Below are positions 1 to 7,368 of a stretch of DNA of 7,368 bases, in pieces. The DNA comes from a virus (taxonomy: Duplodnaviria; Heunggongvirae; Uroviricota; Caudoviricetes). The position numbers were made by a program, and so were the translations under genes. The DNA is taken from the IMG/VR virus record IMGVR_UViG_2537561685_000009; one strand, given 5' to 3'. Under the pieces are notes generated by a model, which worked only from the letters and a program-made list of their open reading frames with translations, was not told the DNA's origin and ran no database searches. The first letter of the stretch is position 1; each line of letters begins with the position of its first letter.

Positions 1-1
1 C

Positions 2-82
2 CGGATTTCGCCGGATGATGGCGGAAGCTGTCATCTCTGGCTTGGGCGGGGCGTACCGCCTGCCGTTAACCGTCGCCGCTGA
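2..82 (+). CDS. FII: 3' end of head-tail joining protein FII-like gene (partial, 5' truncated by window edge)
   Basis: Reading frame starting at position 2 translates to RISPDDGGSCHLWLGRGVPPAVNRRR and stops at TGA 80-82. This matches my recollection of the lambda gpFII C-terminus. It lies 11 nt upstream of the Z start, as expected for FII-Z synteny. Confidence 0.65.
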   Translation, partial: RISPDDGGSCHLWLGRGVPPAVNRRR

Positions 83-93
83 AAGGGGGATGT

Positions 94-672
94 ATGGCCA
101 TAAAAGGTCTTGAGCAGGCCGTTGAAAACCTCAGCCGTATCAGCAGAACGGCGGTGCCCGGTGCCGCCGCAATGGCCATTAACCGCGTTGCTTCATCCGC
201 GATATCGCAGTCGGTGGCACAGGTTGCCCGTGAGACAAAGGTACGCCGGAAACTGGTAAAGGAAAGGGCCAGGCTGAAAAGGGCCACGGTCAAAAATCCG
301 CAGGCCAGAATCAGGGTTAACCGGGGGGATTTGCCCGTAATCAAGCTGGGTAACGCGCGGGTTGTCCTTTCGCGCCGCAGGCGTCGTAAAAAGGGGCAGC
401 GTTCATCCCTGAAAGGTGGCGGCAGCGTGCTTGTGGTGGGAAACCGTCGTATTCCCGGCGCGTTTATTCAGCAACTGAAAAATGGCCGGTGGCATGTCAT
501 GCAGCGTGTGGCCGGGAAAAACCGTTACCCCATTGATGTGGTGAAAATCCCGATGGCGGTGCCGCTTACCACGGCGTTTAAACAGAATATTGAACGGATA
601 CGGCGTGAATGTCTTCCGAAAGAGCTGGGCTATGCGCTGCAGCATCAACTGAGAATGGTAATAAAGCGATGA
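94..672 (+). CDS. Z: Minor tail protein Z (tail completion protein)
   Basis: Intact 192-aa ORF (MAIKGLEQAVENLSRIS...HQLRMVIKR), near-identical in length and sequence to lambda gpZ as recalled. Purine-rich RBS (AGGGGGA) a few nt upstream of ATG 94. Stop TGA 670-672 overlaps the U start (ATGA). Confidence 0.9.
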   Translation: MAIKGLEQAVENLSRISRTAVPGAAAMAINRVASSAISQSVAQVARETKVRRKLVKERARLKRATVKNPQARIRVNRGDLPVIKLGNARVVLSRRRRRKKGQRSSLKGGGSVLVVGNRRIPGAFIQQLKNGRWHVMQRVAGKNRYPIDVVKIPMAVPLTTAFKQNIERIRRECLPKELGYALQHQLRMVIKR

Positions 673-1064
673 AACATACTGAACTCCGTGCAGCCGTACT
701 GGATGCACTGGAGAAGCATGACACCGGGGCGACGCTTTTTGATGGTCGCCCCGCTGTTTTTGATGAGGCGGATTTTCCGGCAATTGCCGTTTATCTCACC
801 GGCGCTGAATACACGGGCGAAGAGCTGGACAGTGATACCTGGCAGGCGGAGCTGCATATTGAAGTTTTCCTGCCTGCTCAGGTGCCGGATTCAGAGCTGG
901 ATTCGTGGATGGAGTCCCGGATTTATCCGGTGATGAGCGATGTCCCGGCACTGTCAGATTTGATCACCAGTATGGTGGCCAGCGGCTATGACTACCGGCG
1001 CGACGATGATGCGGGCCTGTGGAGTTCAGCCGATCTGACTTATGTCATTACCTATGAAATGTGA
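669..1064 (+). CDS. U: Tail tube terminator protein U
   Basis: 131-aa ORF starting at ATG 669 ([18 protein letters not shown]...LTYVITYEM), matching lambda gpU with a few substitutions. The track ORF 609..1064 is an upstream in-frame extension; the real start is the ATG overlapping the Z stop. Confidence 0.9.
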
Positions 1065-1071
1065 GGACGCT

Positions 1072-1799
1072 ATGCCTGTACCAAATCCTGTAATGCCGGT
1101 GAAAGGTGCCGGGACCACCCTGTGGGTTTATAAGGGAAGCGGTGACCCTTATGCGAATCCGCTTTCAGACGTTGACTGGTCGCGTCTGGCAAAAGTTAAA
1201 GACCTGACGCCCGGCGAACTGACCGCTGAGTCCTATGACGACAGCTATCTCGATGATGAAGATGCAGACTGGACTGCGACCGGGCAGGGGCAGAAATCTG
1301 CCGGAGATACCAGCTTCACGCTGGCGTGGATGCCCGGAGAGCAGGGGCAGCAGGCGCTGCTGGCGTGGTTTAATGAAGGCGATACCCGTGCCTATAAAAT
1401 CCGCTTCCCGAACGGCACGGTCGATGTGTTCCGGGCTGGGTCAGCAGTATCGGTAAGGCGGTGACGGCGAAGGAAGTGATCACCCGACGGTGAAGTCACC
1501 AAGTGGGCGTCCGTCATGGCAGAAGATCGCAGACGGTACGCGGCAACCGGATGACGTGACGCCTGCCAGCCTCGGTGGTGAAAGGGCAGAGCACCACGCT
1601 GACCGTGGCATTCCAGCCGGAGGGTGCAACTGACAAGAGCTTCCGTGCGGTGTCAGCGGATAAAACAAAAGCCACCGTGTCGGTCAGTGGTATGACCATC
1701 ACCGTGAATGGCGTTGCTGCAGGTAAGGTCAACATTCCGGTCGTATCCGGTAATGGTGAGTTTGCTGCGGTTGCAGAAATCACCGTCACCGCCAGTTAA
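1072..1799 (+). pseudogene. V: Major tail tube protein V, reading frame disrupted between about 1430 and 1575
   Basis: ATG 1072 ([31 protein letters not shown]...) is preceded by a GAGGA RBS. The N-terminal frame matches lambda gpV up to ...GTVDVFR, then ends at TGA 1462-1464. The continuation [17 protein letters not shown] is encoded in another frame (1434-1484), followed by short frame-hopping pieces (TVK, GRPS, MAEDR). The C-terminal Ig-like portion ([16 protein letters not shown]...AEITVTAS) is intact in the frame of ORF 1575..1799. The span 1072..1799 is 728 nt, not a multiple of 3. Confidence 0.8.
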
Positions 1800-1814
1800 T
1801 CCGGAGAGTCAGCG

Positions 1815-2237
1815 ATGTTCCTGAAAACCGAATCATTTGAACATAACGGTGTGACCGTCACGCTTTCTGAACTGTCAGCCCTGCAGCGTATTGAGCATCT
1901 CGCCCTGATGAAACGGCAGGCAGAACAGGCGGAGTCAGACAGCAACCGGAAGTTTACTGTGGAAGACGCCATCAGAACCGGCGCGTTTCTGGTGGCGATG
2001 TCCCTGTGGCATAACCATCCGCAGAAGACGCAGATGCCGTCCATGAATGAAGCCGTTAAACAGATTGAGCAGGAAGTGCTTACCACCTGGCCCACGGAGG
2101 CAATTTCTCATGCTGAAAACGTGGTGTACCGGCTGTCTGGTATGTATGAGTTTGTGGTGAATAATGCCCCTGAACAGGCAGATGACGCCGGGCCAGCAGA
2201 GCCTGTTTCTGCGGGAAAGTGTTCGACGGTGAGCTGA
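1815..2237 (+). CDS. G: Tail assembly chaperone G
   Basis: Intact 140-aa ORF (MFLKTESFEHNGVTVTLSEL...PVSAGKCSTVS), lambda gpG-like. GGAGAG RBS upstream of ATG 1815. Stop TGA 2235-2237. Confidence 0.9.
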   Translation: MFLKTESFEHNGVTVTLSELSALQRIEHLALMKRQAEQAESDSNRKFTVEDAIRTGAFLVAMSLWHNHPQKTQMPSMNEAVKQIEQEVLTTWPTEAISHAENVVYRLSGMYEFVVNNAPEQADDAGPAEPVSAGKCSTVS

Positions 2238-2653
2238 GTTTTGCCCTGAAACTGGCGCGTGAGATGGGGCGACCCGACTGGCGTGCCATGCTTGCCGGGA
2301 TGTCATCCACGGAGTATGCCGACTGGCACCGCTTTTACAGTACCCATTATTTTCATGATGTTCTGCTGGATATGCACTTTTCCGGGCTGACGTACACCGT
2401 ACTCAGCCTGTTTTTCAGCGATCCGGATATGCATCCGCTGGATTTCAGTCTGCTGAACCGGCGCGAGGCTGACGAAGAGCCTGAAGATGATGTGCTGATG
2501 CAGAAAGCGGCAGGGCTTGCCGGAGGCGTCCGCTTTGGCCCGGACGGGAATGAAGTTATCCCCGCTTCCCCGGATGTGGCGGACATGACGGAGGATGACG
2601 TAATGCTGATGACAGTATCAGAAGGGATCGCAGGAGGAGTCCGGTATGGCTGA
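1815..2653 (+). CDS. G-T: Tail assembly chaperone G-T fusion produced by programmed -1 ribosomal frameshift
   Basis: Slippery heptamer G GGA AAG at 2213-2219 lies near the 3' end of G. The -1 frame continues open from 2219 to TGA 2651-2653 and encodes the gpT-like sequence (FDGELSFALKLAREMGRPDWRAMLAGMSS...GIAGGVRYG). There is no independent strong start for T. This is the well-known lambda G/GT recoding arrangement. Confidence 0.8.
2213..2219 (+). promoter_or_regulatory. Programmed -1 ribosomal frameshift slippery site (GGGAAAG) for G-T synthesis
   Basis: Exact XXXYYYZ heptamer GGGAAAG positioned so that zero-frame codons are GGA AAG, 6 codons before the G stop, with the T frame open in -1. 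Confidence 0.8.
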
Positions 2654-5221
2654 ACCGGTAGGCGATCTGGTCGTTGATTTGAGTCTGGATGCGGCCAGAT
2701 TTGACGAGCAGATGGCCAGAGTCAGGCGTCATTTTTCCGATACGGAAAGTGATGCGAAAAAAACAGCGGCAGTCGTTGAACAGTCAATGAACCGGCAGGC
2801 GCTGGCTGCACAGAAAGCGGGAGTTTCCGTCGGGCAGTATAAAGCCGCCATGCGTATGCTGCCTGCACAGTTCACCGACGTGGCCACGCAGCTTGCAGGC
2901 GGGCAAAGTCCGTGGCTGATCCTGCTGCAACAGGGGGGTCAGGTTAAGGACTCCTTCGGCGGGATGATCCCCATGTTCAGGGGGCTTGCCGGTGCGATCA
3001 CCCTGCCGATGGTGGGGGCCACCTCGCTGGCGGTGGCGACCGGTGCGCTGGCGTATGCCTGGTATCAGGGCAACTCAACCCTGTCCGATTTCAACAAAAC
3101 GCTGGTCCTTTCCGGCAATCAGGCGGGACTGACGGCAGATCGTATGCTGGTCCTGTCCAGAGCCGGGCAGGCGGCAGGGCTGACGTTTAACCAGACCAGC
3201 GAGTCACTCAGCGCACTGGTTAAGGCGGGGGTAAGCGGTGAGGCTCAGATTGCGTCCATCAGCCAGAGTGTGGCGCGTTTCTCCTCTGCATCCGGCGTGG
3301 AGGTGGACAAGGTCGCTGAAGCCTTCGGGAAGCTGACCACGACCCGACGTCGGGCTGACGCGATGGCACGCAGTTCCATAACGTGACGGCGGAGCAGATT
3401 GCGTATGTTGCTCAGTTGCAGCGTTCCGGCGATGAAGCCGGGGCATTGCAGGCGGCGAACGAGGCCGCAACGAAAGGGTTTGATGACCAGACCCGCCGCC
3501 TGAAAGAGAACATGGGCACGCTGGAAACCTGGGCAGACAGGACAGCACGGGCATTCAAATCCATGTGGGATTCGGTGCTGGATATTGGTCGCCCGGACAC
3601 TGCCCAGGGAATGCTGGAGAAAGCAGAAAAGGCTTTTGATGAGGCGGACAAAAAATGGCAGTGGTATCAGAGCCGGAGCCACCGGCGCGGTAAAACCTCA
3701 GCATTTCGTGCCAATCTCCGGGGAGCATGGGAGGACAGAGCGAATGCGCAACTTGGACTTTCAGCCGCCACGTTGCAGGCCGATCTTGAAAAGGCCAGAG
3801 AGATGGCAGCAAAGGACTGGGCCGAGTCTGAGGCATCACGGCTGAAATATACCGAAGAGGCGCAGAAGGCTTACGAACGGCTGCAGACGCCGCTGGAGAA
3901 ATATACCGCCCGTCAGGAAGAACTGAACAAGGCACTGAAAGACGGGAGAATCCTGCAGGCAGATTACAACACGCTGATGGCGGCGGCGAAAAAGGATTAT
4001 GAAGCGACGCTGAAAAAGCCGAAACAGTCCGGCGTGAAAGTGTCTGCGGGCGATCGTCAGGAAGACAGTGCTCATGCTGCCCTGCTGACGCTTCAGGCAG
4101 AACTCCGGACGCTGGAGAAGCATGCCGGAGCGAATGAGAAAATCAGCCAGCAGCGCCGGGATTTGTGGAAGGCTGAAAATCAGTTCGCGGTACTGGAGGA
4201 GGCGGCACAACGTCGCCAGCTATCCGCACAGGAGAAATCCCTGCTGGCGCATAAAGATGAGACGCTGGAGTACAAACGCCAGCTGGCTGCACTTGGCGAC
4301 AAGGTTACGTATCAGGAGCGCCTGAACGCGCTGGCGCAGCAGGCGGATAAATTCGCACAGCAGCAACGGGCAAAACGGGCCGCCATTGATGCGAAAAGCC
4401 GGGGGCTGACTGACCGGCAGGCAGAACGGGAAGCCACGGAACAGCGCCTGAAGGAACAGTATGGCGATAATCCGCTGGCGCTGAATAACGTCATGTCAGA
4501 GCAGAAAAAGACCTGGGCGGCTGAAGACCAGCTTCGCGGGAACTGGATGGCAGGCCTGAAGTCCGGCTGGAGTGAGTGGGAAGAGAGCGCCACGGACAGT
4601 ATGTCGCAGGTTAAAAGTGCAGCCGCGCAGACCTTTGATGGTATTGCGCAGAATATGGCGGCGATGCTGACCGGCAGTGAGCAGAACTGGCGCAGCTTCA
4701 CCCGTTCCGTGCTGTCCATGATGACAGAAATTCTGCTTAAGCAGGCAATGGTGGGGATTGTCGGGAGTATCGGCAGCGCCATTGGCGGTGCTGTTGGTGG
4801 TGGAGCATCCGCGTCAGGCGGTACAGCCATTCAGGCCGCTGCGGCGAAATTCCATTTTGCAACCGGAGGATTTACGGGAACCGGCGGCAAATATGAGCCA
4901 GCGGGGATTGTTCACCGTGGTGAATTTGTCTTCACGAAGGAGGCAACCAGCCGGATTGGCGTCGGCAACCTGTACCGCCTGATGCGCGGCTATGCCACCG
5001 GCGGTTATGTCGGTACACCGGGCAGCATGGCAGACAGCCGGTCGCAGGCGTCCGGGACGTTTGAGCAGAATAACCATGTGGTGATTAACAACGACGGCAC
5101 GAACGGGCAGATAGGTCCGGCTGCTCTGAAGGCGGTGTATGACATGGCCCGCAAGGGTGCCCGTGATGAAATTCAGACACAGATGCGTGATGGTGGCCTG
5201 TTCTCCGGAGGTGGACGATGA
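2646..5221 (+). pseudogene. H: Tail tape measure protein H, frameshifted near 3341-3385 into a 246-aa N-terminal ORF and a 612-aa C-terminal ORF
   Basis: ATG 2646 overlaps the end of G-T (ATGGCTGA). The N-terminal ORF (MAEPVGDLVVDLSLDAARFDEQMARV...EAFGKLTT) runs to TGA 3384-3386. The continuation (SAEQIAYVAQLQRSGDEAGALQAANEAATKGF...) is in a different frame from 3383 and runs to TGA 5219-5221, with a long Ala/Gln/Glu-rich helical middle and a Gly-rich hydrophobic segment typical of tape measure proteins. DPTSG and MAR fragments are visible in alternating frames inside 3341-3373. Confidence 0.8.
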
Positions 5222-5547
5222 AGACCTTCCGCTGGAAAGTGAAACCCGGTATGGATGTGGCTTCGGTCCCTTCTGTAAGAAAGGTGCGCTTTGGTGATGG
5301 CTATTCCCAGCGAGCGCCTGCCGGGCTGAATGCCAACCTGAAAACGTACAGCGTGACGCTTTCTGTCCCCCGTGAGGAGGCCACGGTACTGGAGTCGTTT
5401 CTGGAAGAGCACGGGGGCTGGAAATCCTTTCTGTGGACGCCGCCTTATGAGTGGCGGCAGATAAAGGTGACCTGCGCAAAATGGTCGTCGCGGGTCAGTA
5501 TGCTGCGTGTTGAGTTCAGCGCAGAGTTTGAACAGGTGGTGAACTGA
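5218..5547 (+). CDS. M: Minor tail protein M (tail tip assembly)
   Basis: Intact 109-aa ORF (MKTFRWKVKPGMDVASVPSVRKVRFGDGYSQRAPAGLNANLKTYSVTLSVP...), lambda gpM-like. ATG 5218 overlaps the H stop (ATGA). Stop TGA 5545-5547 overlaps the L start (TGATG). Confidence 0.9.
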   Translation: MKTFRWKVKPGMDVASVPSVRKVRFGDGYSQRAPAGLNANLKTYSVTLSVPREEATVLESFLEEHGGWKSFLWTPPYEWRQIKVTCAKWSSRVSMLRVEFSAEFEQVVN

Positions 5548-6244
5548 TGCAGGATATCCGGCAGGAAACACTGAATGAATGCACCCGTGCGGAGCAGTCG
5601 GCCAGCGTGGTGCTCTGGGAAATCGACCTGACAGAGGTCGGTGGAGAACGTTATTTTTTCTGTAATGAGCAGAACGAAAAAGGTGAGCCGGTCACCTGGC
5701 AGGGGCGACAGTATCAGCCGTATCCCATTCAGGGGAGCGGTTTTGAACTGAATGGCAAAGGCACCAGTACGCGCCCCACGCTGACGGTTTCTAACCTGTA
5801 CGGCATGATCACCGGGATGGCGGAAGATCTGCAGAGTCTGGTCGGCGGAACGGTGGTCCGGCGTAAGGTTTACGCCCGCTTTCTGGATGCGGTGAACTTC
5901 GTCAACGGAAACAGCGAAGCCGATCCGGAGCAGGAGGTGATCAGCCGCTGGCGCATCGAGCAGTGCAGCGAACTGAGCGCGGTCAGTGCCTCTTTTGTAC
6001 TGTCCACGCCGACTGAAACGGATGGCGCTGTTTTTCCGGGACGTATCATGCTGGCCAACACCTGCACCTGGACCTATCGCGGTGATGAGTGCGGTTATAG
6101 CGGTCCGGCGTCGCGGATGAATATGACCAGCCGACGTCCGATATCACGAAGGATAAATGCAGCAAATGCCTGAGCGGCTGTAAGTTTCGCAATAACGTCG
6201 GCAACTTTGGCGGCTTCCTTTCCATTAACAAACTTTCGCAGTAA
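5547..6244 (+). pseudogene. L: Tail tip protein L, frameshifted near 6100 so the written ORF ends early at 6173
   Basis: ORF 5547..6173 (MQDIRQETLNECTRAEQSASVVLWEIDL...TWTYRGDECGYSGPA) matches lambda gpL and then diverges into SRMNMTSRRPISRRINAANA*. The expected C-terminus (DEYDQPTSDITKDKCSKCLSGCKFRNNVGNFGGFLSINKLSQ*) is encoded in the +1 frame from about 6103 to TAA 6242-6244. The span 5547..6244 is 698 nt, one short of a multiple of 3. Confidence 0.8.
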
Positions 6245-6248
6245 TCCC

Positions 6249-6986
6249 ATGACAGAGACAGAATCAGCGATTCTGGCGCACGCCCGGCGATGTGCGCCAG
6301 CGGAGTCGTGCGGCTTCGTGGTGAGAACGCCGGAGGAGGAAAGATATTTTCCCTGCGTGAATATCTCCGGTGAGCCGGAGGCGTATTTCCGGATGTCGCC
6401 GGAGGACTGGCTGCAGGCAGAATGCAGGGTGAGATTGTGGCGCTGGTCCACAGCCACCCCGGTGGTCTGCCCTGGCTGAGTGAGGCTGACCGGCGGCTGC
6501 AGGTGCAGAGTGATTTGCCGTGGTGGCTGGTCTGCCGGGGGCGATTCATAATTCCGCTGTGTGCCGCATCTCACCGGGCGGCGCTTTGAGCACGGGGTGA
6601 CGGACTGTTACACGCTGTTCCGGGAGCTTACATCTGGCGGGATTGAGATGCCGGATTTTCATCGCGGGGATGACTGGTGGCGTCACGGTCAGAATCTCTA
6701 TCTGGATAATCTGGAGGCCACAGGGTTTTACCGTGTCGCACTGACAGAGGCACAACCTGGCGATGTGCTGCTGTGCTGCTTTGGTTCATCGGTGCCGAAT
6801 CATGCCGCCATTTACTGCGGCGACGGTGAGCTGCTGCACCATATTCCTGAACAACTGAGTAAACGAGAGAGGTATACCGACAAATGGCAGCGACGCACAC
6901 ACTCCCTCTGGCGTCACCGGGAATGGCACGCATCTGCCTTTACGGGGATTTGCAACGATTTGGCCGCCGCATCGACCTTCGTGTGA
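6249..6986 (+). pseudogene. K: Tail tip assembly protein K (MPN/JAMM plus NlpC/P60-like), frameshifted at about 6421 and again at about 6540-6556
   Basis: ATG 6249 (MTETESAILAHARRCAPAESCGFVV...FRMSPEDWLQAE) is followed by a frame break. The conserved MQGEIVALVHSHPGGLPWLSEADRRLQVQSDLPWWLVCRG, which contains the JAMM-type HxH-x7-S-x2-D motif, is encoded in another frame from 6422. Frame 0 resumes at 6561 (PHLTGRRFEHGVTDCYTLF...NHAAIYCGDGELLHHIPEQLSKRERYTDKWQRRTHSLWRH...STFV*) to TGA 6984-6986. An alternative shorter start at ATG 6393 (MSPEDW) corresponds to the shorter lambda annotation as I recall it. Confidence 0.7.
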
Positions 6987-7368
6987 AAACGGGGGCCGAA
7001 GCCATCCGGGCGCTGGCCATGCAGATCCCGGCGTTTCGTCAGAAGCTGAGCGACGGCTGGTATCAGGTACGCATTGCCGGGCGTGATGCAGGTAAAACCG
7101 AATTGTCTGCCCGTCTTAATGAGCCGCTGGAAAATGGTGCCGTGATCCATATCGTGCCGCGTCTGGCAGGAGCCAAAAGTGGCGGTGTGTTTCAGGCTGT
7201 GCTGGGGGCGGCTGTTATGGCGGTTGCTATATGGATGCCGGGGGTAGGAATTATGGCGAGTAATCTGCTGTTTTCTCTCGGTGCCAGTATGGTGCTCGGT
7301 GGTGTGGCGCAGATGCTGGCACCGAAAGCCAGAACTCCCCGTACACAGACAACGGATAACGGCAAACA
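6884..7368 (+). CDS. I: Tail tip assembly protein I (5' portion; runs off the window end)
   Basis: Open frame from ATG 6884 (MAATHTLPLASPGMARICLYGDLQRFGRRIDLRVKTGAEAIRALA...GVFQAVLGAA...LFSLGASMVLGGVAQMLAPKARTPRTQTTDNGK) with no stop to the window edge, lambda gpI-like. It overlaps the 3' end of K in a different frame. An alternative start is ATG 6923. The central segment differs from lambda gpI as I recall it. Confidence 0.75.
   Translation, partial: MAATHTLPLASPGMARICLYGDLQRFGRRIDLRVKTGAEAIRALAMQIPAFRQKLSDGWYQVRIAGRDAGKTELSARLNEPLENGAVIHIVPRLAGAKSGGVFQAVLGAAVMAVAIWMPGVGIMASNLLFSLGASMVLGGVAQMLAPKARTPRTQTTDNGK

Follow-up and report, generated by a model that had tools for sequence, protein, structure and literature searches.

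The gene for the major tail tube protein, V, is interrupted in the window, i.e., the whole stretch of 7,368 nucleotides that was analyzed (positions 1-7368, + strand), and this raises the question of whether the gene has decayed in a prophage or whether the record is at fault. The window is a complete draft contig, AQCA01000042.1 (GCA_000359055.2), and the two sequences are identical. Alignments with lambda and with annotated prophages of E. coli delineated a lambda-type tail module that consists of the end of FII, followed by Z, U, V, G, T, H, M, L and K, and the start of I. Gene V is laid out as follows:

1072-1799, + strand: gene V, major tail tube protein; 728 nt in the window compared to the normal 741 nt
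1072-1464, + strand: N-terminal V ORF, truncated, 130 aa; in GenBank as "major tail protein V"
1433-1572, + strand: 13 dropped columns of V, with gaps after 1433, 1486, 1494, 1502, 1507, 1515, 1532, 1537, 1539, 1550, 1555, 1570 and 1571
1575-1799, + strand: C-terminal V ORF, orphan, 74 aa, Ig-like Big_2 domain; stop at 1797-1799

The frame that starts with the ATG at 1072 stays in register up to GTVDVFR, then shifts and ends with TGA at 1462-1464, and further TGA triplets are found at 1491 and 1557. The first-pass annotation had reported these three stops, together with pieces of V that continue in alternating frames, and all of the pieces are present: a 17-residue peptide at 1434-1484, TVK at 1487-1495, GRPS at 1505-1515 and MAEDR at 1516-1530. 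The Ig-like C-terminal block resumes, as reported, with the ORF that is read from 1575. The fragments carry the Phage_TTP_12 and Big_2 domains (PF16461, PF02368). In the Z-U-V-G-T context, homology to gpV-type proteins covers the tube domain at the N-terminus as well as the Ig-like domain at the C-terminus, and the deposited sequence lacks the single ORF of ~246 codons. Compared to lambda gene V (J02459.1, 8955-9695), there is full-length alignment over both domains, and the gene order Z-U-V-G-T-H-M-L-K-I is the same; however, the frame in the window is broken by 13 missing bases, and the true allele is closer to that of one of two prophages of enterotoxigenic E. coli (ETEC) strain 120899, described below.

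Missing bases in gene V and differences between two prophage copies

In the interval 1000-1900, the window contains 901 bases compared to 914 in every relative, i.e., V shows 13 single-base deletions and no insertions. The first-pass annotation had estimated about a dozen losses and described the events as indels. The estimate agrees with the 13 deletions counted against lambda and the closest prophage of E. coli, but the term was too broad: every event is a one-base deletion. The best E. coli match for the interval 1000-1900 is NZ_CP025916.1 (strain 120899), with an identity of 98.6% that is made up of 13 gaps and no mismatches; lambda aligns over the full length of the same interval with 96.8% identity. 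Twelve of the missing bases of V are at third codon positions and one is at a first position, and ten of the 13 deletions coincide exactly with differences between lambda and the 120899 prophage.

Strain 120899 is the closest complete genome and carries two lambdoid prophages on one chromosome, copy A (locus L001, the numbering of which is used below) and copy B (locus L087). The closest V allele is that of copy A, and there are no substitutions between the window (943-2177) and this copy. Within L001 7382-7635, the V genes of copies A and B have exactly 13 differences, namely:

7435, 7489, 7498, 7507, 7513, 7522, 7540, 7546, 7549, 7561, 7567, 7583 and 7585

When these 13 discordant columns are removed from copy A, the resulting string is the same as that obtained from copy B by removal of the same columns, and both are identical, base for base, to window 1381-1621 (241 nt). 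All 13 anomalies in V coincide with differences between the copies. The probability that 13 random deletions among 254 columns land on exactly those columns is 4.6e-22. It should be noted that, in this dense cluster, the gaps were taken from the exact-string test and run-aware placement, whereas the three-way MAFFT alignment misplaced several of them ("DEL(A==B)" at 7508 and 7547-7548).

Re-insertion of the bases of copy A yields a V gene of 741 nt that is identical to copy A, encodes 246 aa and contains no internal stop. Because the 13 re-inserted bases restore the frame exactly, the failure of the V frame is most likely a property of the record, not of the gene. The first-pass annotation had also considered that, if the damage is real, this prophage would be unable to make a tail tube; this reading is not supported, given that the V obtained by putting the 13 bases back is intact and identical to that of a finished genome. 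From these sequence comparisons, the scrambling of V is almost certainly a consensus artefact, in which a repeat of near-identical prophage tail modules was collapsed in a draft assembly of the short-read era. The alternative that the first-pass annotation had offered, a low-quality stretch of the assembly, was correct with regard to an artefact; the explanation is more specific, in that the missing bases are the 13 sites that differ between two co-resident V alleles.

In the closest finished genomes, there are 5-7 matching places per genome, including copies A and B in 120899, and up to eight in the relatives of 120899; by analogy, the source strain probably has both copies as well. Both alleles are found on one chromosome in the finished relatives 120899, 103605, 204446, 504237, ETEC-2265 and others. 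The same artefact could also arise if two strains or sub-populations had been sequenced together, so that the second allele came from the mixture and not from a second copy on the same chromosome, and any mixture of A and B reads would yield identical dropped columns. We consider this version very unlikely: the closest finished relatives each carry both alleles on one chromosome, and the effect is seen in several separately assembled isolates, so that paralogy is a simpler source than mixture.

Deletions in H, L and K and the sites on which they fall

The first-pass annotation had confined the damage to 1425-1580. This limit does not apply to the contig, where H, L and K hold 11 more deletions of the same kind. 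Across the whole contig, there are 25 one-base deletions and no insertions, 12 of them outside V (four in H, one in L, one in the L/K spacer and six in K):

3340-3371, + strand: H (tape-measure gene), four dropped columns; gaps after 3340, 3351-3354, 3359 and 3370; all at third codon positions, all A/B SNPs
6109-6110, + strand: L, one dropped column; A/B SNP T/G, third codon position
6242-6243, + strand: spacer between the L stop and the K start, one-base gap; copy B and 13 of 56 IMG/VR loci lack this base as well
6420-6641, + strand: K, six dropped columns; gaps after 6420, 6541, 6551, 6625, 6630 and 6638-6641; five are A/B SNPs

As a consequence of these deletions, H is split into two ORFs, 2646-3386 (246 aa) and 3383-5221 (612 aa), L is truncated to 208 aa (5547-6173), and K is fragmented (6207-6986). 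The broken H, L and K result from the same artefact as V. The gap after 6242 is an exception, in that it probably reflects natural indel variation and not the artefact. At 6420, the missing base belongs to an AAA run (L001 12441-12443), and this is the sole deletion that matches no A/B difference in 120899; an equivalent placement is a GAA/GAG wobble site at L001 12442, which is polymorphic in the population (A37/G18). The copies of the source strain may differ at this site, or a third copy may be involved.

Third codon positions account for 21 of the 25 deletions in the contig (binomial p = 2.6e-7). For a comparison with the population, 80 IMG/VR loci in which V is intact (246 aa) were piled onto the reference, and a column was considered polymorphic when the minor-allele fraction was at least 0.1. 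By this measure, polymorphism is found in 23 of the 25 deleted columns, compared to 8.5% of the full set of 7,393 (Fisher p = 5e-23). The two non-polymorphic deletions lie in short homopolymer runs and are equally placeable on the polymorphic neighbors 12442 and 12667 (L001); all 25 deletions can be assigned to columns that vary among natural alleles. With run-equivalent placement allowed, 23-24 of the 25 deletions in the window fall on A/B differences, compared to the expected 5.8%; this count includes the 6242 indel that is common to copy B, and 7582 is merely an alignment alternative of 7585.

These distributions bear on two other explanations. The first is random sequencing error or low coverage, e.g., homopolymer miscalls, with no second allele involved. 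Each event is a one-base deletion, which on some platforms is the commonest type of error, and two or three of the deletions are in short runs (L001 9367-9370, GGGG; 12441-12443, AAA; 12664-12667, GGGG). However, most of the deleted bases are outside homopolymers, as in CCG[T]GGC and CCG[T]ACG, random errors would not be expected to favor wobble sites or to fall on A/B differences in 23-24 of 25 cases, and the same sites recur in independent assemblies. Accordingly, random error is a negligible candidate.

The second explanation is genuine pseudogenization, whereby V truly lost 13 single bases and formation of a tail tube would be impossible. ETEC lambdoid prophages are visibly decaying in other ways (e.g., copy B has an IS66-family element in Z, and copy A is adjoined by a truncated terminase), and the identical truncated product in three deposited assemblies could resemble inheritance. 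However, natural deletions have no reason to favor third positions or the exact 13 inter-allele sites, and the affected stretch contains neither insertions nor substitutions. The lesions of a genuine pseudogene would be blind to codon position and to allelic sites, and would usually include substitutions, insertions and larger deletions; those found here differ on each count. The first-pass annotation had called so many indels in so short a space unusual for natural decay. The pattern is indeed far from random, not just in the number of losses but in their location, on wobble and inter-copy SNP sites. Comparison with E. coli lambdoid prophages that have truly decayed and become cryptic leads to the same point. 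The tail genes are broken in both cases, but the real decay in 120899 takes the form of an IS66-family element inserted into Z and of truncation of a terminase; clusters of one-base losses at wobble or polymorphic sites only are not part of it. Together with the sister contigs and finished genomes considered below, these observations leave pseudogenization of V highly improbable.

Sister contigs, mosaics and finished genomes

The truncated V of 130 aa is on record on only three contigs (5.8-7.6 kb), from three assemblies (7,368, 7,552 and 5,813 bp), and is found in GenBank three times as "major tail protein V" (END29443.1, ENG48623.1 and ENH51250.1). Of the protein names recovered for these entries, two of three refer to E. 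coli P0305293.5 and P0305293.13. P0305293.1 is listed as an ETEC isolate from Bangladesh, 2011, which was sequenced at GSCID (PMC4309559). A literature search with the WGS and assembly accessions found no paper. Because GenBank holds the truncated product, the deletions belong to the records as deposited and did not arise at a later step; the possibility that ambiguity codes were stripped by a downstream database was rejected on these grounds for all post-GenBank steps. The 130-aa product belongs to a 90% cluster of 313 V fragments, which are mostly partial and come from draft contigs.

An exact search of viral contigs with the 77-nt scrambled stretch identified an IMG/VR contig (L003) with a different sequence that has 12 of the 13 V deletions in common with the window; among the genome contigs searched, this stretch had no exact match. 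L003 is one of three sister contigs, together with L004 and L006. The deletions of the three sisters fall on A/B differences in 30 of 31, 13 of 13 and 37 of 38 cases, in no particular order, again compared to the expected 5.8%. The four contigs, i.e., the window and its three sisters, hold different subsets of deletions. In L006, for example, neither deletion of the 7583/7585 pair occurs and H is intact, and L003 lacks the 7435 deletion but has many extra deletions downstream. With regard to the deletions at 7435 and 7582/3, all four combinations of presence and absence are found among the four contigs; therefore, a single line of descent is impossible. This result argues against pseudogenization, under which sister isolates would have inherited the same set of lesions.

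Among the ~3,500 complete E. coli genomes in which V has a match, none carries the V deletions; the best identity is 94.9%, which corresponds to 13 gaps in 254 columns. The anomalies do not form one reproducible haplotype: they vary among sister assemblies and are absent from finished genomes.

The four contigs differ not only in deletions. At 244 A/B SNP sites (L001 6650-13100), each base called in any of the four contigs is either the A or the B allele, never a third, and the contigs represent four different mosaics of A and B blocks. In the window, there are 152 A sites, 72 B sites and 20 gaps. Among complete genomes, the mosaic of the window is absent, with 98.6% as the best whole-window identity. 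The substitutions in the four contigs are probably the result of a phase-switched consensus and do not represent real haplotypes.

One more reading takes the deletions as real and in vivo: a process that acts on the heteroduplex between co-resident prophage copies would remove one base per mismatch. If true, this would represent a mutagenic effect of inter-paralog recombination that has not been described before; we assign to it only a minute probability.

Proposed origin of the record and its consequences

For the preferred reading, the collapse of near-identical tail modules, the following scheme can be proposed. The source is an ETEC colony isolate of the P0305293.x series, with a draft assembly of 2013, and the strain would carry at least two lambdoid prophages with near-identical tail modules, as its closest finished relatives do. 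The assembler would have piled the reads of two, possibly more, copies into one contig of 7.4 kb. In a column where the copies disagree and no base wins, no base would be emitted, so that a SNP becomes a one-base deletion; other columns would follow either copy, which would produce a chimeric A/B mosaic. Two routes to the loss of a column can be envisaged: (i) a SNP that is represented as two half-gap columns, each of which would lose the majority vote; (ii) ambiguity or low-quality symbols that would be stripped prior to submission. A simple rule by which every inter-copy difference is dropped was rejected: it fails for the copies of 120899, where most A/B SNPs are resolved, and therefore the drop of a column depends on local conditions.

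Collapsed-repeat mis-assembly has been described in detail (Phillippy, Schatz and Pop 2008, Genome Biol 9:R55; PMC2397507), and correlated differences between copies are its textbook signature (PMC2397507). As in that work, the reads of near-identical copies appear to be joined, the inter-copy sites mark the collapse, and the unit is a short stand-alone contig that contains only a multi-copy prophage module. There are, however, two distinctions from the cases in PMC2397507. In the latter, the SNPs are visible as disagreements in the read alignment, and the consensus can still be correct, whereas the consensus of the window lost those columns. In addition, the consensus of the window switches phase between the copies.

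The scrambled V is a matter of data quality, not a biological feature, and the inference of tail-less particles from this record is not warranted. Because the V genes that underlie the record are most likely intact, it is no basis for classifying the prophage as tail-less or cryptic. Beyond this locus, the implication is that the 2013 batch of ETEC drafts (P0305293.x and relatives) includes prophage contigs that are chimeric consensus sequences, in which SNPs between paralogs were turned into frameshifts, and that the three GenBank entries above are false truncated proteins that are now in public databases. Such contigs would mislead counts of pseudogenes, calls of prophage intactness and analyses of recombination. 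A signature suitable for screening without reads consists of one-base deletions only, in wobble or polymorphic columns only, on short contigs that contain only the repeat.

Both prophages of 120899 are themselves truly damaged, via IS insertion and not via small deletions. In copy B, an IS66-family element (ISCro1, tnpA and tnpB) is inserted in the tail gene Z (L087 3516-6801); copy A adjoins an IS66 tnpA and a terminase that lacks the N-terminus (L001 1-766).

In lambda-type phages, G and T are fused via programmed -1 frameshifting. In the window, the slippery heptamer GGGAAAG is intact at 2213-2219, just 5' of the G/T overlap (2219-2237); one match to this heptamer is the chance expectation, so that its position alone carries meaning.
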